A stretch of DNA of 64,000 bases from a phage. Both the position numbers and the translations under genes were made by a program. The notes beneath the pieces are model-generated. The model did no database searches. It was not told where the DNA came from and saw nothing but the letters and a program-made list of their open reading frames with translations. Shown one piece after another: positions 264-12,773 of this stretch (positions are counted from its first letter, which is position 1; the number at the start of each line of letters is the position of its first letter). The stretch lies in the NCBI GenBank assembly GCA_022143435.1, contig GCA_022143435.1_3941.1, one strand, 5' to 3'.

Positions 264-1049
264 TTAGTTCTTTGCGTCTAAGAAGGTAACTTCTGGTGAA
301 GAGAAGATTGCCTCGATATCCTCATCAGTTCTTGCATAGATATAAGCTTCTGCATCACTACCAAATGTTACAGCAATTCTGTGATTGCTCTTTGACAGGT
401 GGGTAACTAGAGCGTTACTTAGAGACATCTTTTCAACCGGAGGGTTACTTTGATGTATCTTACCTTTTCTTCGTCTGAATAGGGTAACTGCGTTATCTGT
501 GAACACTGCTACACCTGCAAAGTATTCTGGTTCACAGTAGTTCTTCCAACCTGAGCGTAACTTGTGGTACATCTCGCCTTCATAGACATACAGATAAACA
601 TCTACACTCTTCATCACCTGATTGATGATAACTGTGATGGCTTGAGGGTCAAGTCCACCGATACCTGCACCAATCATAGGTAAACCAACTTTCTTCAACT
701 GATTAACTTCACAGTATCTGTTAAGCTGTTTCAAAGATGACTCTAAAGCACTGTATCGGGCATCTTTACCAGTCTTAAGCTGAGTGTAAAGGTTAGCTAT
801 ACGACCTTGTTTTAAGCGTGCTACAGAGAAATTACCTAGTAAATTCTCACAGGGTTTGTGACCTATACCACCTGCATAGAGATAAACTTCTGTATCGGTC
901 TCATATGCTTTTGGGTAAAGTTTAGAAATCTTGTCAGCGATACCTGCGCCCATTAGGTTCATGCAGTTACAACCATGACCAATGATGTCAAACTTACCTT
1001 TATCAAATGCAGCAAAGATATCACCATTGATGATTTTTACAATACCCAT
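264..1049 (-). CDS. Macro-domain protein (ADP-ribose binding/processing fold) with C-terminal extension
   Basis: N-terminal GDI...DIIGHGCNC...MGAGIA and later GLPMIGAGIGGLDP match the two glycine-rich macro-domain signature motifs. Confidence 0.6.
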   Translation of the reverse strand: MGIVKIINGDIFAAFDKGKFDIIGHGCNCMNLMGAGIADKISKLYPKAYETDTEVYLYAGGIGHKPCENLLGNFSVARLKQGRIANLYTQLKTGKDARYSALESSLKQLNRYCEVNQLKKVGLPMIGAGIGGLDPQAITVIINQVMKSVDVYLYVYEGEMYHKLRSGWKNYCEPEYFAGVAVFTDNAVTLFRRRKGKIHQSNPPVEKMSLSNALVTHLSKSNHRIAVTFGSDAEAYIYARTDEDIEAIFSSPEVTFLDAKN

Positions 1050-4399: not shown

Positions 4400-5509
4400 T
4401 TAGATTTCACGTTTACGCTGAGAGATAAGTTCACCAGCAGTGCCAACGATGACATGCAAAGCTTCAGTCTTGCCATCCCATGATTTCAGTACTTTACGTT
4501 GATTATCAACGATTGCTGCAACTTCATAACGTGATGAACGCATCTTCATATCGTTGTAATCAGTTGGAACAGATACAACATCTCGTGGATGGACACGAAC
4601 CTTCAGAATTGTATCACCTGAGAAGCAACGAACATAATCCCAAGCACCAACGTGAAGACCTTGAGAGCAAGTCACGTTACGGTTATTATCAACCATCCAA
4701 CGTGGCATTTCTACAATGTTACCTAAATCATTAGGTACTCTGTAGGTGTGGGAGTCAACCAGCTTGCCTTCACGAGTAGAGACTTTCTTCCAACCAATGA
4801 TGTAGCCTTCTTCATCAATTTCAACATCAAGGTGAGATATGAATCCCCAAAGTTGTTCTACAGAATCTTTAGATGGGTTTTCCATCAGTTTTTCTAAGAA
4901 CATTACAAGTCGTTCAAAACCTTTATCACCAGTCTTCATCATGTGAAGTATACGGTCAACCAGAGTAGAACGCATCTCAACAGCACCGTAGAATAGCTTA
5001 TCACCTTTGATTGTGATAGCTCCCTGCGTGAAGTTTTCGATAGACTTACGAATGTTCATCAGTTCAAAGGCTTTCTTGAACTCACCTTTCACAACATGAA
5101 CTACAATCTCTTGATAGTTCGGATGAGTAGACTCAACAATTTCAGATTCTGAACCGTAAGTCATAATTACAGAGTCACCAGTAATCATGTACTCAATCTT
5201 GTCATCTTTCTGCATAGCTTCATGCAGTTTATTTACTGGAGCTTTCTGTACAGACTCTTTAACAACCTTTTCAACTGGTTTGTCAGCTTTCTTTTTAAAG
5301 GTCTTAGCAACTTGCTTCAAAGTCTTCGTAGCTGGTGTAGAAGTCACCTTCTTATTCCCTTTTAAGGTTGCTTCATGACGCTCTACAGCACGACCGACTG
5401 AACGGGTTGAGGTGTTAAATTTCTGTGCAATAGCGGTTTTAGTCAGCTTGCCCTCTTTAACCAGTTTGTAAATTTCTGCGTCAATCTGTGCTTTAGTTTT
5501 AGTAGTCAT
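4400..5509 (-). CDS. rIIB: rIIB-like protein (N-terminal HTH-like region)
   Basis: Lies immediately downstream of the rIIA-like gene; N-terminal HTH-like segment; assignment mainly by synteny. Confidence 0.4.
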   Translation of the reverse strand: MTTKTKAQIDAEIYKLVKEGKLTKTAIAQKFNTSTRSVGRAVERHEATLKGNKKVTSTPATKTLKQVAKTFKKKADKPVEKVVKESVQKAPVNKLHEAMQKDDKIEYMITGDSVIMTYGSESEIVESTHPNYQEIVVHVVKGEFKKAFELMNIRKSIENFTQGAITIKGDKLFYGAVEMRSTLVDRILHMMKTGDKGFERLVMFLEKLMENPSKDSVEQLWGFISHLDVEIDEEGYIIGWKKVSTREGKLVDSHTYRVPNDLGNIVEMPRWMVDNNRNVTCSQGLHVGAWDYVRCFSGDTILKVRVHPRDVVSVPTDYNDMKMRSSRYEVAAIVDNQRKVLKSWDGKTEALHVIVGTAGELISQRKREI

Positions 5510-5588: not shown

Positions 5589-7955
5589 TTAATCGTAAAT
5601 TGTAGTCCCTTCTGGAACACATTTTACATCAAAGCCTAAGAACTTACTCACTTCGATGGGTGACACTTTATTCCAATCTAAATGAGAAAGCAAGAAGTTT
5701 TCTTGTTTTCTTTTTGAAAGGTAGTTTGTCACCTTAATGACCATACGGTCACCAGCTTTCTTAATTTTCTTGTAAAGCTTTGTATCATTGTCAAGACAGT
5801 CTTTCAAAGTTTTCAATACACTAATAGTATAAGTGTATGCAAATGGTGCAGCAACGTATTGGATTTTACCGAACATTGCCTCTACAGCCTCTTCATTACC
5901 TTCTAAGAAGATAGTTTTGTTTGTGTCTCGTGAATAGCAATAGCCACGAGAAATATTCCTGTTATTGAACGTAAAGTTTCTGGCAATAATCCAACTGCTT
6001 GTAAGGTCAAGGACACCATTCATATAGATACGTGTCATATACCTGTTATGATTAATCCAATGAACATCAGTTAAGCTGTCGTTCAAGAGTTTCTCATCTA
6101 CTTCAATCCAGTCTTCTGGTATCTTTTTCCAATTTGCTTTTCGGAAAACATAGACTGTCTTCCCTGTAACATTAGCAACTGACTTGGCTACATCTTCTGG
6201 AGATGAGCAAAAACATTCGCCATCAACTGTGTCACCAACTGCCTTAATGTAAAGCTGAGGTTCTTCAATTGTATCAAAGTCCTCTAAAACCTCTTTATAG
6301 GAAGCTACACCTTCTGCTGGAACAGCTTTCCAGAGTTTTACAACACCCCTTACAGCTTCTTTGCGCTGGTAATGGTGCTCCTTATCAGACATTTTCACAA
6401 TCTTTAACAAGCTTTTATCAAGTTTGTGTAGATTTATTAAATCATCCAACTCTTTTTCAGTCGAGAATACAAACACAATACCATTGTATCTGTGGAACAG
6501 GCTTGACTCGTTGGCGTAGTCTCGACATGCACCACGCAAGATTTGATTGCGGCCTACAGTCTTTTCAGTACCGTTTTTATTGCGACGGTCATTAATCACG
6601 AACAAAAACTGTTCAATTTGGCTTTTACGCATTGCACCAAAAATATTGAACATGCTCGCCTCTTGAGTGTAGGAAAGTGCTGTTGCACGAATCTTACTCT
6701 CTAAAGAGTTAAACTTAACATAGGCAACTGGATTGTATAGGTAGTCAACTTTAGGGATATTGTTTCCTTTGCTGTCAACCTTAATATTACCTTTGCCGTC
6801 ACGTTCATAAATGACTGAGCCGTCTTCTGCGTAGATAATTCCACGACGAATGTTTAGTAATTCTTCTTCCAGAGAATCAAGCTTAACACCTCCCCACTCT
6901 AGCTTTGGACACACAACATTAAACATCTCTCGTGAGTTTAAGCGTAACTCAGCATAAGCCTGTGCAGCATCCATGAGTGTAGGTTGACTATTAACTTTCT
7001 TGATAACATCCTTTGTAATTGCTTCAGTTATCTTTTTAGTAGCCTCGATGATAACATTTTTTGTCGTGTCATTCATCTGCAATGCTTCACGAGAAGCTGC
7101 AATAGCAACTGAACCAATAGGCATGTAGATGTTTACAAGGTCTATGCTCCTGCGGAAAAATTCTGGTAATACTTTGAAGAAATCATCACCAAGTAATGCC
7201 TCCATATTAACTGGGTAGGCAATATTACCCATAACCACGTTAAACTCTGTTCTATTGCTGCTTGAACGCCAGCTATGCTTATGAGTCATGGCATCATAGA
7301 CACCTTCTTCACGAGCAATCACATCCATATCTGCTAATATATCATTATACTCCACATTACTCTCTGGTTTTACAGCAAAGTATGAGTATACATTACCAGC
7401 CTCTTCAAAGAACTTTGAAATACGGTGGTCAGCAACTGCCACACGTACAGCTAAACCATTAGGTTCTTTTGTTGGGTTAGTGGTCAGTTTAGTTACTTGA
7501 GGGATACCATTCTCAAGATAAACAGAGTACTTATTAACAACACCGTCAACATAGCTAGACACTGTGAATGACTGAGCAATTGCAAATGGTGACTTTGAGC
7601 CGATACCCATTGCACCAATGTAGTCATTGGAGTCATTCTTTGTAGAAGCCCCGTAGTTTAGGTACAAGCTCATAACTTTGTCATGAGTTAATCCAGTTCC
7701 AAAATCACGAACTTCAAAGTAAGGCTCAAAACGAGTAGGTAAATGCACATGGAATGGGATGTTCTCTTTTCCAGCTTCTTTCTGAGCATCTACTGCGTTA
7801 CATGACAGTTCACGAATAACTGCCCTTTCTTTAAATGTGTATACACCAGAACTCAAAAGGCTGAACATTTCAGGTGTCATTGTAATCTGTGCTTGAGACG
7901 TCTCTAAAGAAGTTGAACTCTTAATCACTTCTGCGTGGTCGTTTACCATGCGCAT
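5589..7955 (-). CDS. rIIA: rIIA-like protein with N-terminal GHKL (Bergerat-fold) ATPase domain
   Basis: GHKL N-box (ELSCNAVDA), G1 box (RDFGTGL) and G2-like GAMGIGSKS; size comparable to T4 rIIA. Confidence 0.55.
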   Translation of the reverse strand: MRMVNDHAEVIKSSTSLETSQAQITMTPEMFSLLSSGVYTFKERAVIRELSCNAVDAQKEAGKENIPFHVHLPTRFEPYFEVRDFGTGLTHDKVMSLYLNYGASTKNDSNDYIGAMGIGSKSPFAIAQSFTVSSYVDGVVNKYSVYLENGIPQVTKLTTNPTKEPNGLAVRVAVADHRISKFFEEAGNVYSYFAVKPESNVEYNDILADMDVIAREEGVYDAMTHKHSWRSSSNRTEFNVVMGNIAYPVNMEALLGDDFFKVLPEFFRRSIDLVNIYMPIGSVAIAASREALQMNDTTKNVIIEATKKITEAITKDVIKKVNSQPTLMDAAQAYAELRLNSREMFNVVCPKLEWGGVKLDSLEEELLNIRRGIIYAEDGSVIYERDGKGNIKVDSKGNNIPKVDYLYNPVAYVKFNSLESKIRATALSYTQEASMFNIFGAMRKSQIEQFLFVINDRRNKNGTEKTVGRNQILRGACRDYANESSLFHRYNGIVFVFSTEKELDDLINLHKLDKSLLKIVKMSDKEHHYQRKEAVRGVVKLWKAVPAEGVASYKEVLEDFDTIEEPQLYIKAVGDTVDGECFCSSPEDVAKSVANVTGKTVYVFRKANWKKIPEDWIEVDEKLLNDSLTDVHWINHNRYMTRIYMNGVLDLTSSWIIARNFTFNNRNISRGYCYSRDTNKTIFLEGNEEAVEAMFGKIQYVAAPFAYTYTISVLKTLKDCLDNDTKLYKKIKKAGDRMVIKVTNYLSKRKQENFLLSHLDWNKVSPIEVSKFLGFDVKCVPEGTTIYD

Positions 7956-8141
7956 AATACTTTCCTCTCAGTTTACTGTTAAATTACTTATTAAACATTT
8001 TACCAGAACCACCACACATAGGGCAACATCCTGCCCTTATGTACCCCTCTCCATTACAGTAGTCACATTTTTTGTGCTCTGCAAAGTACTTGCAAAGGAG
8101 GTAGACAAATACTGCTACACTACCAAGTGACAGTAAAATTT

Positions 8142-8477
8142 CTATCCAATATGCTTGCATGACTCACCTCTCATATTCTTGTAAAGGATAAAGCTTCTGT
8201 CATGGACGATACTTGTAGACACTGCAAAGTTACTTTCAAGCATCTGTTTGTTTGGATTGTAGAAGCTTTCTTTAAACTCGTCAAGTGCAAATTGGTGATT
8301 ATCTGGAAGACCTTTTACACAGACCTTTATTGTAATTGCTGCTGCGACCTTGCCAGTCAGTTCTTCTTTAGCTGCTACTAAAATTTTGTTAAGGAACTTA
8401 TGACCATCTTCAGGCTTCTTGATGTTCTCCCAACGTTCTTCTAAGACAATGTTGATGTTCATCTCTTTGATTTTCAT
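8142..8477 (-). CDS. Hypothetical protein
   Basis: ORF; no recognised motif. Confidence 0.4.
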   Translation of the reverse strand: MKIKEMNINIVLEERWENIKKPEDGHKFLNKILVAAKEELTGKVAAAITIKVCVKGLPDNHQFALDEFKESFYNPNKQMLESNFAVSTSIVHDRSFILYKNMRGESCKHIG

Positions 8478-8490
8478 AGTTTTCTCCAGA

Positions 8491-8516
8491 AATTAAAAAG
8501 GCTCCCGTAGGAGCCT
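8491..8516 (-). terminator. Rho-independent terminator (GGCTCC-CGTA-GGAGCC then TTTTTAATTT on minus strand)
   Basis: Inverted repeat plus T-run directly downstream of the NAMPT gene. Confidence 0.6.
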
Positions 8517-8530
8517 CTTATCATATACTT

Positions 8531-10312
8531 TTAAAGCTGCTTGTCAATATTATTTCGAATATCCCCAAGAGTTGTGTAACCGAACTGCTCAGAGTCACTA
8601 AAGACTAAACGTAAGGCACAAGCTGGGTGGTCAAGTACATCTGCAAAACTCTGGAATCCATAGCCATCTATAGCTTTCAGCTTGTCACCATCCCACATAG
8701 GTGCTACACCACCAAAGGCAGATTTCTTAACACCACTATCTGTTTTAGGGTCTTTTGCAAGCATAATCTCTTTACCACCAATGCTTGCAAGAGTTGCTTT
8801 GACAGCAAATGCAAAGGTGTCACGAGTCATGTACTGGTAAGTGTAAGAACCTACGCCAAACACTACGTTAGAGCTTGCAAAACCCATTTCATACAGACGC
8901 TTCAGGATTTCGTTTGCACGTTCCAGCGTGATAGAGTCACCATAGATAAGTCCGATATGCTCATCCAGTACCTTAAACCCTTTAGAGTTAATAGTTCCCC
9001 CAAAGATGTTGTACAGTGTCTTAATAGCTCCATCAATCTCAGCTACAGGACGTGTTACAACGTTTGCAGAACCAACCATATAAGCGTTTTTCAGCAGCAC
9101 TGTATCAGCAACTTCAAAGTCTTCTCTGTCAACAACCATTTCGTAGCCTTCTGACAGTAGCCATCCAGCAATACCATAATTGATGTTTTCAAGCTTCATG
9201 TTCAGAACAGCATTCAACATTGTGTCACTGGCTTCAAGCTTGCTTAAGTGTTCGTAATAAGCCTTTTTAGCACACTCTAAGTGGATTGCTTTATAACCTG
9301 TGACAATATGTACAGGGTCTCCAGAGTCAGGACGAATTACCAGTTTACCGTCACGTCCCATAATCTCTTTGCGAAGTGCTGGTAAGATTTCTGACACAGT
9401 TCTCCAGAAGTTATAAGTGTCTGAAACAACACTTGCAATACCAGTTGGGTAAGTTTCTGTTAAGAAACGACGGAAGGTTTGTAACTCACCTTTAAAGCGT
9501 CTTTCTTCTTCAATCAACTCATTACCACCTTCCCAAGCAATGTTTGCACACATTACAGAGTGTTCAGTGGCTGGTACAGAACTACCAATATCAGAGATTG
9601 GGTAAGACTGTCCATAGATGCGTTTAGCCGTGTATACAGCAGGGAAGCTATCGGTTCCTTTAAAGCTGGTTAAGTGACCTACAGCGTTAAATGCGTCATC
9701 AGTAAAGCCGGACATACCACGCATAGCAAAGTCGTGACACTGATAAGGTAAATGTAGGTCGTTGTCACAAGTAAGGTCAGCCCACTTCTTACATATACGT
9801 TTGTAGTGCAATGCAATAGTCGCAATGGTGCAAGCCTTCCAAATCTCAGCAGAGAAAGCATCTTCCAGATAACCTGCTACCCAATGGAAGCCTGAAACAG
9901 TGTTCTGGAAGACAATCATTGGGACACGCATCGGGACAACTGTACCTTCTTCTACAGCATATACTTCAACTGGTAGATAACCTAAATCGTGGAGTGCTTC
10001 CCAATGCTCTCGACCGATAGCATCTTTGCCCAGAACACCATTCATGACTTCTAAGATTTCGTCAATTGCTTCTTTTTTGTCACGTTCAAAGAACGTAGCA
10101 TTCCAGTGGTCTATCAAGTAATCTTTAACAAAACGTTGAATACCAAAAGCGACTACACCATCAATTGCTAATGGACTGTTAAACCATTTGTCGCTACGTG
10201 GTGTCAGGTTGAACATCAAATATTCTGTTGCACTAGGGTACTGGTAAACATGACCAGATTTGTAAGCATCTGCGTTTAAACCTGCTGGTACTGCATAAAG
10301 TGATTTAGTCAT
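8531..10312 (-). CDS. nadV: Nicotinamide phosphoribosyltransferase family protein (NadV/NAMPT-like; possibly a nicotinamide ADP-ribose transferase)
   Basis: NAMPT-type motifs (SDTYNFW, LIYGDSIT); adjacent to a PRPP-synthetase-like gene. Confidence 0.8.
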   Translation of the reverse strand: MTKSLYAVPAGLNADAYKSGHVYQYPSATEYLMFNLTPRSDKWFNSPLAIDGVVAFGIQRFVKDYLIDHWNATFFERDKKEAIDEILEVMNGVLGKDAIGREHWEALHDLGYLPVEVYAVEEGTVVPMRVPMIVFQNTVSGFHWVAGYLEDAFSAEIWKACTIATIALHYKRICKKWADLTCDNDLHLPYQCHDFAMRGMSGFTDDAFNAVGHLTSFKGTDSFPAVYTAKRIYGQSYPISDIGSSVPATEHSVMCANIAWEGGNELIEEERRFKGELQTFRRFLTETYPTGIASVVSDTYNFWRTVSEILPALRKEIMGRDGKLVIRPDSGDPVHIVTGYKAIHLECAKKAYYEHLSKLEASDTMLNAVLNMKLENINYGIAGWLLSEGYEMVVDREDFEVADTVLLKNAYMVGSANVVTRPVAEIDGAIKTLYNIFGGTINSKGFKVLDEHIGLIYGDSITLERANEILKRLYEMGFASSNVVFGVGSYTYQYMTRDTFAFAVKATLASIGGKEIMLAKDPKTDSGVKKSAFGGVAPMWDGDKLKAIDGYGFQSFADVLDHPACALRLVFSDSEQFGYTTLGDIRNNIDKQL

Positions 10313-10330
10313 CTTTTAATCTCTCTCAAA

Positions 10331-10348
10331 ATGGGGCTTTCAAGCCCC
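10331..10348 (-). terminator. Hairpin GGGGCTT-TCAA-GCCCC between prs-like and nadV-like genes (possible attenuator)
   Basis: Inverted repeat; weak U-tract. Confidence 0.4.
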
Positions 10349-10357
10349 TATAAACTT

Positions 10358-11254
10358 TCAATCAAGGTTTGCTACAGTAACTTGACCATAATGTGTTAAG
10401 CCACGGTCTTTAGCTTCGCCTAAAGAGTTTGTAGTGTAAATATGGTCGATACCATTGTCAAGAAGGTTTTCAACACCTTTAGAGAAGATACCATGTGTTA
10501 CATAAAGCTCAACACGTTTTGCACCTGCTTCACGAAGATGTTTCACTGCTTCTATGAAGGTTCGACCACCATCACAGATATCATCCAGAATCATGACGGT
10601 TTTATCTGTCAAATCAACATCATCAAGGATTCGCATACCAGTAATTTCACCAGTCTTAAGGTTACGCACTTTAGACATTGTGATGTATGGTTTATCCACC
10701 TCTTTAGCAGTCTCTGCAATCTTCTTAGCAGCACCTGCATCTGGGGCTACTAAGTAATCAATCAGTGGGTCATTTGCATAGTGGACTGCAATTTCCTTTT
10801 GAGAAATACTCTGGAAGCAGTTAAACAGGTTATCTGGTACATAGCTGTGAGGGTCAACTGCACAGACTGCATCAAAACCCATTGCATTAACCTGTTGTGC
10901 AAACACTTTCAAAGCTGCTGCATCACCTTTAAACATGTGACGGTCGTAACGTGCATTTGGCAAATAGTAAAAGATAGCAGTCTTCATAGCAAACTTATGA
11001 GGTACTAAATCATCAATTGCTTCTTTAGCAAGTGCCACAGCAAACAATGTGTCCTTATCATAACCTTTTACAATCATAATCACATTGTTGATAGATGATG
11101 CTGCATAAGCAGTAAAATCAACAAACTCTGGCGAAAAGTGTCCACCAATCTCACCAGAAGGGAATTGGACGATGTTAAACTCTTCTTCATGAGTCCCTTT
11201 AGTTGGTGAATGAACTGTAACACGGATAGATGTTTTCATAGTTTTCTCTCTCAA
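10358..11254 (-). CDS. prs: Ribose-phosphate pyrophosphokinase family protein (Prs-like; possibly ADPR-PP synthetase)
   Basis: PRTase/PRPP-binding motif ILDDICDGGRT and Prs-like VDPHS segment. Confidence 0.8.
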   Translation of the reverse strand: MREKTMKTSIRVTVHSPTKGTHEEEFNIVQFPSGEIGGHFSPEFVDFTAYAASSINNVIMIVKGYDKDTLFAVALAKEAIDDLVPHKFAMKTAIFYYLPNARYDRHMFKGDAAALKVFAQQVNAMGFDAVCAVDPHSYVPDNLFNCFQSISQKEIAVHYANDPLIDYLVAPDAGAAKKIAETAKEVDKPYITMSKVRNLKTGEITGMRILDDVDLTDKTVMILDDICDGGRTFIEAVKHLREAGAKRVELYVTHGIFSKGVENLLDNGIDHIYTTNSLGEAKDRGLTHYGQVTVANLD

Positions 11255-11529
11255 TCAAAAGTTACGTTTGTTACTGCCATTGCAGATTTGCATTTTGCAG
11301 GGTCTACAACGTGATAAAGTACACTACAGTTACCTGTGCTGTCTGGTACAGGCTTTACCCATTGCTGCTTTATAGTTGGCTCTCCTAAGTCTTTGTAAGA
11401 GCCATCTGTAAAGTTGTTTACCATCTCAAGTGCAATTGGTTCTGGAACATGACCACGTATCATGTACATCTCACAACCATTACCACCTTCACTGACTAAT
11501 GGTAAAATCTCCCACTTCTCTTTAGCCAT
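11251..11529 (-). CDS. Hypothetical protein
   Basis: ORF in array. Confidence 0.4.
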   Translation of the reverse strand: MAKEKWEILPLVSEGGNGCEMYMIRGHVPEPIALEMVNNFTDGSYKDLGEPTIKQQWVKPVPDSTGNCSVLYHVVDPAKCKSAMAVTNVTFD

Positions 11530-12037
11530 TATAAGTTGCCCTATAAACTGTCTCGAACTTCAACAGGAGAGATATTGCCAAATCTGTATAGTTGTTGTCA
11601 AGCACATCTGGCATATTGTTTTTGATATATTTCTCTTGCTCTTCATAGGTCATCTTAGGTGTGCTTAGAAGGTTATCTCCTTGCTTCTGGTTATCAAGTT
11701 TAGTCTGGATAAACCAGTTTGCACAGTGATGCTCACCACCCTTTGTAACAGGTTTGTGGTGGCCTAGTGTAAATGTTTGCTTACCCGTATACCTGCAAAG
11801 ATTGTTCAGTGTTGCAATGGTGTTCTTCACAACACACCATTCATACAGGTTATCTATTGTGTAGTGTGGGTAATAACGGACAAGTGCTCTTTCACGGAAG
11901 TTATCACGATTCCAAAGAACCATGTGATTAGAATTTGAAGGGTCATATTTGTGGGAGTCTATAAATTCTTGACGCTCATCAAAGCTGAGTCTTAGAACTG
12001 ACATTGCAACCGAACGTTTCAGGTTTGACAGATACAT
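11522..12037 (-). CDS. Hypothetical protein with possible HNH-like motif
   Basis: GHHKPVTKGGEHHCANW...N resembles an HNH core (HH...GG...N). Confidence 0.3.
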   Translation of the reverse strand: MYLSNLKRSVAMSVLRLSFDERQEFIDSHKYDPSNSNHMVLWNRDNFRERALVRYYPHYTIDNLYEWCVVKNTIATLNNLCRYTGKQTFTLGHHKPVTKGGEHHCANWFIQTKLDNQKQGDNLLSTPKMTYEEQEKYIKNNMPDVLDNNYTDLAISLLLKFETVYRATYNG

Positions 12038-12053
12038 TTTACCTCCAAAATAA

Positions 12054-12076
12054 AAAGGGAACCTTTACAGTTCCCC
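12054..12076 (-). terminator. Hairpin GGGAAC...GTTCCC with downstream T-run on minus strand
   Basis: Inverted repeat read in sequence. Confidence 0.4.
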
Positions 12077-12088
12077 TATAGTATCTGT

Positions 12089-12693: not shown

Positions 12694-12773
12694 TAAAGTT
12701 TAATACAGAACTTATGAAGTTCTTCTTCAGTGATACCAATTGGAGTTATACCTTAGTCCATTTGCCAGAATAA

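Follow-up and report, generated by a model that had tools for sequence, protein, structure and literature searches.

Phages that carry a nicotinamide phosphoribosyltransferase (NAMPT)-like gene next to a ribose-phosphate pyrophosphokinase (Prs)-like gene raise the question of which route these enzymes take to NAD+: classical salvage through PRPP and NMN, or a pathway that starts from ADP-ribose (ADPR). Such a pair occurs in the window analyzed here, a 64,000-nucleotide stretch of phage DNA (GenBank assembly GCA_022143435.1, contig GCA_022143435.1_3941.1). A first-pass annotation had proposed that the pair rebuilds NAD+ against NAD+-depleting immunity, while holding that sequence alone cannot distinguish the two routes. 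The proposed role agrees with the orthology and synteny of the pair to genes 79-80 of phage Bas63, and comparison with published sequences does settle the route. The pair is almost certainly an operon of NAD+ reconstitution pathway 1 (NARP1), the ADPR-based route, rather than one for PRPP/NMN salvage. What decides between them is the relationship to Bas63, an adenine-clamp motif specific to the NAMPT-like enzyme of NARP1, and entries in published tables. NARP1 is in fact already known from this setting, as the pathway, consisting of Adps and Namat, was discovered as genes 79-80 of Bas63 (JohannRWettstein), a phage of the same genus (Osterman et al., bioRxiv 10.1101/2024.02.11.579819).

The NARP1 pathway

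In this pathway, NAD+ that bacterial defense systems (SIR2-HerA/Nezha, type I Thoeris, DSR1/2, SEFIR and others) have split into ADP-ribose and nicotinamide is rebuilt in two steps. Adps moves the beta-gamma pyrophosphate of ATP onto the 1'' hydroxyl of ADPR, and the resulting ADPR-pyrophosphate (ADPR-PP) is condensed with nicotinamide by Namat to yield NAD+ directly, an adenine "selectivity clamp" favoring ADPR-PP over PRPP. With NAD+ restored, the phage can replicate.

Two genetic studies, independent of each other, have confirmed NARP1, and solved structures are available for homologs of both enzymes. For Bas63 the literature gives deletion phenotypes and NAD+ levels, and shows that the pathway does not depend on host pncC or nadR. 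In independent genetic work, single deletion of g79 or g80 lowered plating on Sir2-HerA by 10^4-10^6, and complementation restored it. ADPR-PP is seen only in infected defense-carrying cells and was detected in Bas63-infected SIR2-HerA cells. The enzymology comes from homologs of SPbetaL1, ICP1, DyoEdafos and Paenibacillus foliorum: the Adps proteins of SPbetaL1 and ICP1 convert ADPR and ATP to ADPR-PP and AMP, and the preference of SPbetaL1 Adps and Namat for ADPR and ADPR-PP has been demonstrated biochemically. For Bas63 Namat, the evidence for this preference comes from metabolomics and genetics. The phylogeny, enzyme assays and challenge of defense hosts with knockout phage that the first-pass annotation had suggested have essentially been carried out for the Bas63 ortholog. 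For the window itself, the evidence comes from orthology and synteny, from the conservation of residues for catalysis and specificity, from purifying selection and from the fold, and we infer the activity of its exact protein pair from the homologs.

Organization of the locus

The window derives from a Felixounavirus. Over the gene pair its nucleotide identity to phage heid is 98.1%, and 260 phage records match. With Bas63 (MZ501086, a Felixounavirus) it shares the gene order NrdG...gp77-gp78-Adps-Namat...rIIA, as well as the genomic position and the lengths of both products (293 and 593 aa), although it lacks Bas63_0081, a small gene downstream of namat. Both ORFs were recovered on the minus strand where the first-pass annotation had located them, and Pfam and PHROGs agree with the families it had assigned. 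Its coordinates hold for namat; the 5′ end of the Prs-like gene requires correction. The longest ORF (10358-11254, 298 aa) begins with TTG at 11254, but the gene probably starts at an ATG at 11239. This start is favored because the Bas63 gp79 annotation and the N-terminus of the heid protein (MKTSIRV...) agree with it, and because the Shine-Dalgarno-like motif GAGAGAGA lies upstream.

Table 1. Features of the NARP1 locus and the distal Macro-domain gene (positions in the window).
Feature	Position	Strand	Description
Macro-domain protein, candidate Adpp homolog	264..1049	-	261 aa; ortholog of Bas63_0095 "putative phosphatase"
Terminator-like hairpin directly after namat	8496..8519	-	10-bp stem, 5 GC pairs, T-rich tail
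namat	8531..10312	-	ORF, 593 aa, ATG start; predicted nicotinamide ADP-ribose transferase (NAMPT-like), NARP1 enzyme 2
Namat insert domain	9032..9295	-	residues ~340-427, lineage-specific
Intergenic stem-loop adps/namat	10327..10348	-	GGGGCU-UGAA-AGCCCC then AUUUUG
adps	10358..11239	-	ORF, 293 aa from the probable ATG start; predicted ADP-ribose pyrophosphokinase (Prs-like), NARP1 enzyme 1
gp78-like ORF	11251-11529	-	92 aa; phrog_4726; no Pfam family
gp77-like ORF	11522-12037	-	171 aa; phrog_3500; no Pfam family
Terminator-like hairpin upstream of gp77-like gene	12055..12077	-	9-bp stem and T tract

The namat start codon lies 45 nt downstream of the end of adps on the same strand. Between the two genes is a stem-loop with a predicted RNA folding energy of -12.8 kcal/mol (z -2.6 versus shuffles), which the terminator scan did not call because its T run is short. 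It is possibly a weak attenuator or an RNA-stabilizing hairpin. The intergenic region is ~97% identical in nucleotide sequence to that of Bas63, and the hairpin is therefore probably retained. The two terminator-like hairpins of Table 1 bracket a gp77-gp78-adps-namat block. Transcription of this unit presumably ends at the hairpin after namat, whereas the other hairpin is overlapped by a promoter-like site at 12106-12078 (9/12 matches).

The gp77-like and gp78-like ORFs are not part of NARP1. The former encodes a protein 91% identical to Bas63_0077, which reportedly counteracts the Ec67 retron. The latter, 12 nt upstream of adps, was considered as a NARP1 accessory gene and rejected: its homologs are confined to Ounavirinae (231 records) and absent from other NARP1 lineages, and it has no family annotation. 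No match to Macro (Adpp) or RyR (RyDEP) was found among the immediate neighbors, namely these two ORFs and ORFs of 111 and 58 aa.

Adps and its mosaic allele

The Prs-like protein matches Pfam PF00156 and PF14572 (Pribosyl_synth) and PHROGs phrog_619 (E 1e-97), yet its similarity to cellular Prs is low (26% identity to E. coli Prs; 74 bits for the best Prs in the PDB). Its N-terminus is the same as that of heid MN850577_00081, which the published Adps table gives as a cluster representative, with Namat neighbor "Yes". Together with 80% identity to Bas63 Adps, a query and defining member of the group, these comparisons place the protein in the phage Adps clade, distinct from cellular Prs. In that clade 97% of PRPS-like genes adjoin a Namat gene, the arrangement also found in the window.

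The catalytic lysine, the acceptor residues and the PP loop of Adps are conserved. Window K190, R97, H131, D167, D219 and D220 align to K185, R87, H121, D161, D212 and D213 of ICP1 Adps (NAR 2026 PMC13586617), and I221, C222-D223-G224 and F228 to I214, C215-D216-G217 and F221. The two proteins thus have in common the PRPS-like fold, the beta-hairpin lysine, the acceptor residues (R/H/D/DD), the DDICDG of the PP loop and the lid Phe. The catalytic beta-hairpin lysine K190 also corresponds to K162 of SPbetaL1 Adps, a protein ~30% identical to that of the window, and the Adps-type PP loop (DDICDGG.TF) is conserved with respect to both homologs. One difference from ICP1 is GRT instead of AAS at PP-loop positions 218-220. 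The two aromatic contacts of ICP1 Adps to the ADPR adenine, F18 and F92, are matched less clearly: F92 falls on M102, with F103 next to it, and the N-terminal region around F18 is too diverged to align.

Identity to Bas63 gp79 is 80% (234/293), and 54 of the 59 substitutions fall within residues 1-176. The 5′ end of adps is 59-72% identical in nucleotide sequence to Bas63, in comparison with 100% for the upstream gene and 91-99% for namat, and the boundary is sharp, exactly at the adps start codon. Two adps allele classes, visible as identity bands, coexist among Felixounaviruses. The whole gene has a dN/dS of 0.15 versus Bas63; in the diverged segment dN/dS is 0.13 with a saturated dS of 1.67. 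Judged from these rates, adps is a mosaic whose 5′ two thirds is an old allele kept under purifying selection, which explains the lower identity of Adps, and positive selection on the segment was rejected on the same values. Because the allele class differs, the Bas63 data apply to the window Adps by inference only.

The sharp boundary and the coexistence of two allele classes might suggest that the diverged N-terminal two thirds alters substrate use or regulation, for example by admitting another acceptor or by letting the enzyme evade a host inhibitor or sensor, and that the pathway consequently differs in function from that of Bas63. This is very unlikely. The two alleles agree at every mapped catalytic, acceptor and PP-loop residue, the substitution rates speak for old divergence under constraint, and the published Adps table already contains the window allele, with a Namat as its neighbor.

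Namat and the choice between ADPR-PP and PRPP

The NAMPT-like protein matches Pfam PF04095 NAPRTase (E 2e-34) and PF18127 NAMPT_N, as well as PHROGs phrog_448 (E 2e-201). It is identical to Bas63 gp80 at 585 of 593 positions (98.7%, insert domain included), and namat has a dN/dS of 0.03 versus Bas63. The window Namat is already listed in the published NARP1 tables, where the heid protein MN850577_00080 appears as an "Adps-associated" Namat. In the PDB, the best sequence match is SPbetaL1 Namat (9w5w/9w5x) with 430 bits, versus 180 for Xanthomonas campestris (Xcc) Nampt and 141 for human NAMPT. An AlphaFold2 model of the window protein (pLDDT 94.3) gave the same crystal structure as the best Foldseek match (E 1e-53, TM 0.95 over target).

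NARP1 of SPbetaL1 (Adps WIT26982, Namat WIT26983; NAR 2026 PMC12774641) is the same pathway of two enzymes; its Namat, 47% identical to that of the window, shares the catalytic core and SCH clamp motif of the latter. Window D15, Y17, F195, R198, D221, H251, R327 and D329 align to SPbetaL1 D13, Y15, F189, R192, D215, H245, R306 and D308, so the NAMPT-family core (nicotinamide-stacking Phe/Tyr, Asp, catalytic His and Arg-x-Asp) is kept. The Namat-specific adenine-clamp motif GS-X-Phi-X-Phi-X-Phi-TRD is present as GSYTYQYMTRD (488-498), with clamp residues Y490, Y494, T496, R497 and D498; its sole deviation is Met instead of Asn/Val at Phi3. The two clamp aromatics, Y490 and Y494, correspond to G374 and Q378 in KVP40-type Nampt. 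In the selectivity-clamp loop (SCL), the adenine-stacking rule calls for Arg as the third residue, or for Lys/Tyr followed by a stacking residue. SPbetaL1 stacks R40 on the adenine, whereas the window Namat has S40-D41-K42-W43, the same as Bas63 Namat, which is cited as Lys-type. At 98.7% identity to Bas63 Namat, the window enzyme would be expected to prefer ADPR-PP over PRPP and to make NAD+ directly.

Classical salvage is the reading implied by Pfam, PHROG and NCBIfam, which all name both proteins accordingly. In this route PRPP would be produced from ribose-5-phosphate by the Prs homolog and joined with nicotinamide to give NMN by the NAMPT homolog, and host NadR or PncC-NadD would complete NAD+. 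The Nampt catalytic core is also fully preserved in Namat, which shows residual PRPP-to-NMN activity in vitro, and a minor activity of this kind may be present in the window Namat. As the main function, either this route or one resembling NARP2 is nonetheless extremely improbable. It is at odds with the substrate preferences of the SPbetaL1 enzymes and with the classification of the heid Namat, and for the Bas63 ortholog it has already been largely refuted. NARP2 (KVP40 Nampt and Nmnat/Nudix) and cellular NadV/NAMPT with Prs share protein superfamilies and nicotinamide-ribosyl coupling chemistry with the window pair. NARP2-type Nampt, however, lacks the clamp aromatics, uses PRPP and needs an adenylyltransferase partner rather than a Prs-like one. 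NARP2 was therefore rejected: the window Namat has the clamp, its partner is a Prs-like Adps, and the syntenic 49 kb of Bas63 contains no annotated Nmnat. NARP3, composed of a PnuC-like nicotinamide riboside transporter and a NadR-like bifunctional enzyme, was also rejected, as Pfam assigns the pair to NAPRTase/NAMPT_N and Pribosyltran/Pribosyl_synth. That the genes are mere passengers, either decaying or already without catalytic activity, has next to no probability, since both frames are intact and under strong purifying selection, every catalytic residue is kept (with no loss-of-function substitution at Adps K190 or Namat R327/H251 in the window), and the pair is conserved in ~250 related phage records.

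The unusual length of the NAMPT-like protein, remarked on in the first-pass annotation, is real: it exceeds SPbetaL1 Namat (491 aa) and NadV/NAMPT by ~100 aa. Most of the excess is due to an insert of ~85 aa that is absent from SPbetaL1 Namat, which has a 13-residue loop in its place; a second insert of ~15 aa is likewise absent there. The larger insert is confidently predicted to form a compact alpha/beta subdomain that follows the RPDSGDP strand and precedes the next helix, and no relative of it was detectable. Beside the strand with R327 and D329, it could modulate substrate access, oligomerization or host-factor evasion.

A distal Macro-domain protein

An extended pathway, NARP1-AP (Adps-Adpp-Namat), has been described in Vibrio phage Gary (bioRxiv 10.64898/2026.01.28.702374); it is defined by a gene for a Macro-domain ADPR-1''P phosphatase within two genes of NARP1. 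In the window no such gene lies within that distance. A Macro-domain gene is located ~7.5 kb (~14 genes) downstream of namat on the same strand. The published survey covered +/- two genes around NARP1, and this protein is unlisted.

Its product matches Pfam PF01661 Macro (E 3.9e-7, 30.5 bits versus a cut-off of 22). Its identity is 27% (E 2e-13) to the Adpp of phage Gary, an enzyme with biochemical data, and 35% (E 6e-18) to another Macro protein from a NARP1 operon; both alignments run end to end, with ligand-binding motifs conserved. It differs from NARP1-AP in its position outside the operon and in an extra C-terminal region of ~100 aa, and is best regarded as a candidate Adpp. Pseudomonas phage K5 has a Macro homolog two genes after Namat. 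In an Erwinia Ounavirinae phage, a Macro gene was expected beside NARP1, but there too it lies far off, in the post-spanin position seen in the window. The Macro family is also common in T-even phages; among Escherichia phages, ~1000 listed records have it versus 192 with a Namat.

A tentative and rather doubtful proposal is that Felixounaviruses run an extended NARP1 in trans, the distal Macro protein dephosphorylating ADPR-1''-phosphate produced by RES-type (aRES) defenses and feeding ADPR to Adps and Namat. If so, these phages would gain NARP1-AP-like resistance invisible to a survey of +/- two genes.

Implications

The gene pair itself adds nothing new, and the practical value of the assignment is correct annotation. 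Databases label the two proteins "ribose-phosphate pyrophosphokinase" and "nicotinamide/nicotinate phosphoribosyltransferase", names that conceal a role against host defenses, one that bears on phage host range and phage therapy. The Namat insert and the mosaic adps allele represent uncharacterized variation in an arms-race pathway and, together with the Macro protein, are modestly useful leads. Should the unlinked Adpp-like protein prove to act with NARP1, surveys of operon neighbors would undercount extended NARP1 pathways.

Identity of the gene pair

Both minus-strand ORFs that the first-pass annotation had read as a NAMPT-like and a Prs-like gene are present as described, coordinates included. 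The NAMPT-like protein carries the Pfam domains NAPRTase (E 2e-34) and NAMPT_N, the Prs-like protein carries Pribosyltran and Pribosyl_synth, and the PHROGs and NCBIfam annotations of both are consistent with these. The pair is a textbook NARP1 (NAD+ reconstitution pathway 1) operon and as such is already known; the phage is closely related to the one that first yielded this pathway. NARP1, which consists of the Prs-like Adps and the NAMPT-like Namat, was first found as "genes 79-80" of the BASEL phage Bas63 (JohannRWettstein), whose accession, MZ501086.1, is given in the supplement of the NARP1 paper. This record is a Felixounavirus and shares its gene order with the window: NrdG, small ORFs, gp77, gp78, Prs-like gp79, NAMPT-like gp80, rIIA and rIIB. 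Namat is identical to Bas63 gp80 at 585 of 593 positions, and Adps to gp79 at 234 of 293.

Matches to the 2.7-kb region come from 260 phage records. With few exceptions these are Felixounavirus or Felix-O1-like phages of Escherichia, Salmonella, Shigella and Citrobacter; the closest is Escherichia phage heid (98.1%). In the published supplementary tables, heid MN850577_00081 is an Adps cluster representative flagged as Namat-associated, and MN850577_00080 is entered as an "Adps-associated" Namat. The N-terminal sequence of the window Adps is that of MN850577_00081, and judging by this match the window's adps allele is already in those tables. The true adps start is very probably the ATG at 11239, giving a protein of 293 aa, in agreement with the Bas63 annotation and with the published heid sequence. 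GAGAGAGA stands before this ATG, and an identical motif precedes the namat start. The motif TTGAGAGAGA, a few bases 5′ of the ATG, is common to both genes.

Coordinates of the NARP1 pair and associated features
Feature	Position	Strand	Description
Macro-domain ORF	264-1049	minus	261 aa; Bas63_0095 ortholog, annotated "putative phosphatase"
rIIB ortholog	4400-5509	minus	just downstream of NARP1
rIIA ortholog	5589-7955	minus	just downstream of NARP1
Terminator-like hairpin	8519-8496	minus	downstream bracket of gp77-like/gp78-like/adps/namat block
namat (NAMPT-like)	8531-10312	minus	ORF, 593 aa, ATG start
Namat insert domain	9032-9295	minus	residues ~340-427; alignment and predicted fold
Intergenic hairpin	10327-10348	minus	GGGGCU-UGAA-AGCCCC + AUUUUG; between adps and namat; shorter, GC
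adps (Prs-like)	10358-11254	minus	longest ORF, 298 aa, TTG start
gp77-like ORF	11522-12037	minus	171 aa; 91% identical to Bas63_0077
Terminator-like hairpin	12077-12055	minus	upstream bracket of the same block

Substrate specificity and the NARP1 reactions

The structure of Namat revealed a conserved Nampt-like core and an adenine "selectivity clamp", formed by two elements: a helix with the motif GS-X-Phi-X-Phi-X-Phi-TRD, in which positions 3 and 7 are aromatic, and a variable loop contributing a stacking residue (PMC12774641). Every core residue is present in the window Namat (D15, Y17, F195, R198, D221, H251, R327 and D329). Its clamp motif reads GSYTYQYMTRD (488-498) and its loop K42-W43, both as in Bas63, whereas a KVP40-type (NARP2-type) Nampt has Gly and Gln in place of the two aromatics. 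The top PDB sequence matches are the crystals of Namat from phage SPbetaL1 (9w5w/9w5x, 430 bits), followed by Haemophilus NadV (353), Xanthomonas campestris Nampt (180) and human NAMPT (141). An AlphaFold2 model (pLDDT 94.3, pTM 0.92) likewise has a Namat as its best Foldseek match (E 1e-53, TM 0.95 over the target).

For Adps, the structure of the phage ICP1 enzyme identifies the catalytic lysine, acceptor residues, a remodelled PP loop and a lid Phe (PMC13586617). K190 of the window Adps corresponds to ICP1 K185 and to SPbetaL1 K162, which the original NARP1 study mutated, and R97, H131, D167, D219, D220, I221 and F228 are also present. The PP loop reads DDICDGG.TF, as against DDMIDTGGTL in Escherichia coli Prs. 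The catalytic, acceptor, PP-loop and lid residues are unchanged in the Bas63 allele. Of the ICP1 adenine contacts, F92 aligns opposite M102, with F103 adjoining, and the region around F18 does not align.

Comparison with published NARP1 sequences supports and sharpens the first-pass reading of the pair. That reading held that sequence could not separate classical salvage from the ADPR-based route; orthology to Bas63 NARP1 together with the conserved residues suffices to assign the latter. The window Adps would thus convert ADPR and ATP to ADPR-pyrophosphate (ADPR-PP), from which Namat would form NAD+ with nicotinamide. Both reactions have been demonstrated using SPbetaL1, ICP1, DyoEdafos and Paenibacillus homologs. 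Bas63 without the operon forms ~20-fold fewer plaques on SIR2-HerA, with deeper NAD+ depletion, and ADPR-PP (m/z 720.010) is detected solely when wild-type Bas63 meets the defence system. In an independent knockout screen, single deletion of g79 or g80 cut Sir2-HerA plating 10^4-10^6, complementation restored it, and effects on the Ec86 retron and hhe were weaker.

Allelic and domain variation

The mosaic adps allele, an insert in Namat and a distal Macro-domain protein may be regarded as minor leads. Nucleotide identity to Bas63 is 100% over the final 90 bases of the gene upstream of adps, 59-72% at the adps 5′ end, ~90% in its 3′ third and 91-99% in namat. The boundary is sharp and lies exactly at the adps start codon, and the diverged part comprises the 5′ two thirds (10700-11239, minus strand). 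Its saturated dS (1.67) and dN/dS of 0.13 point to an old alternative allele, exchanged long ago between functional genes, and not to decay or recent adaptation. Identity bands show that two adps allele classes coexist in the genus, both common.

Namat is longer than its SPbetaL1 counterpart by ~15 aa near residues 258-272 and by the ~85-aa insert, which follows the RPDSGDP strand bearing R327 and D329 and precedes the next helix. A homolog search recovers this insert in Namats of Felix-O1-like phages with identities as low as ~46%, including those from phages of Yersinia, Pectobacterium and Salmonella. The homologs ranking next (~496 aa) are without it. Unrelated inserts occupy the same site in other lineages, making it a family-wide insertion hot spot. 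The insert is confidently predicted as a small alpha/beta domain (pLDDT 93-97 in context; 94.1, pTM 0.83 alone), and its dN/dS of 0.07, a figure with few substitutions behind it, indicates purifying selection. No relatives by sequence or structure were found in Pfam, PDB or BFVD. In the text of PMC12774641 the word "insertion" is absent, and "inserted" occurs solely for plasmid cloning.

A distal Macro-domain protein

In NARP1-AP, the pathway is extended by Adpp, a Macro-domain phosphatase that converts ADPR-1′′-phosphate, a product of RES-type (aRES) defence that NARP1 cannot use, to ADPR. The Macro-domain protein of the window has an N-terminal Macro domain exceeding the Pfam cut-off and an unannotated C-terminal region of ~100 aa. 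Adpp proteins of NARP1 operons align end to end with its first ~160 residues, among them the biochemically tested Adpp of Vibrio phage Gary (27% identity, E 2e-13) and another published entry (35%, E 6e-18), and the motifs N-C...M-G-x-G-I-A and P-x-I-G-x-G-x-x-G are kept. The published NARP1-AP survey scanned two genes on each side of NARP1 and has no Felixounavirus in its table; at ~7.5 kb from NARP1, this gene would have gone uncounted. Pseudomonas phage K5 has a Macro homolog two genes after Namat, and in an Erwinia Ounavirinae phage the gene is distal, as in the window. The protein may possibly serve NARP1-AP in trans. Against a specific link, about 1000 Escherichia phage records, T-even phages included, hold a member of the same Macro family and just 192 hold a Namat, and the top PDB sequence matches are to OARD1/TARG1, not Poa1p.

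Surroundings of the operon

The immediate neighbours of the pair contain no NARP1 accessory Macro/Adpp or RyR/RyDEP domain. Bas63_0077, described as GIY-YIG, is a reported counter to the Ec67 retron (knockout screen). A Pfam scan of its window ortholog found no family, and there is weak similarity to a PHROG HNH endonuclease (E 4e-6). A divergence hot spot lies within this ORF at about 11790-11969 (79-84% nucleotide identity to Bas63). The gp78-like protein occurs in Ounavirinae only.

The 345-nt Bas63_0081, which in Bas63 separates namat from the following gene, is missing from the window (site ~8475-8483), and smaller presence/absence differences lie near 12754 and 13281. A 58-aa ORF (7984-8160, minus strand), the counterpart of Bas63 gene 83 ("putative membrane protein"), has a predicted N-terminal hydrophobic stretch, a CxxC...CxxC pattern and a weak DnaJ central-domain-like match (E 0.003). 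At about 30-42 kb the GC skew switches from negative to positive and then returns, a pattern that fits a plus-strand gene block, and no tRNA genes were detected in the entire window.

The rIIA and rIIB proteins of Bas63 (genes 84 and 85) are reported counters to QatABCD. With this reported role, NARP1 and its neighbours would form a stretch of the genome rich in anti-defence genes.
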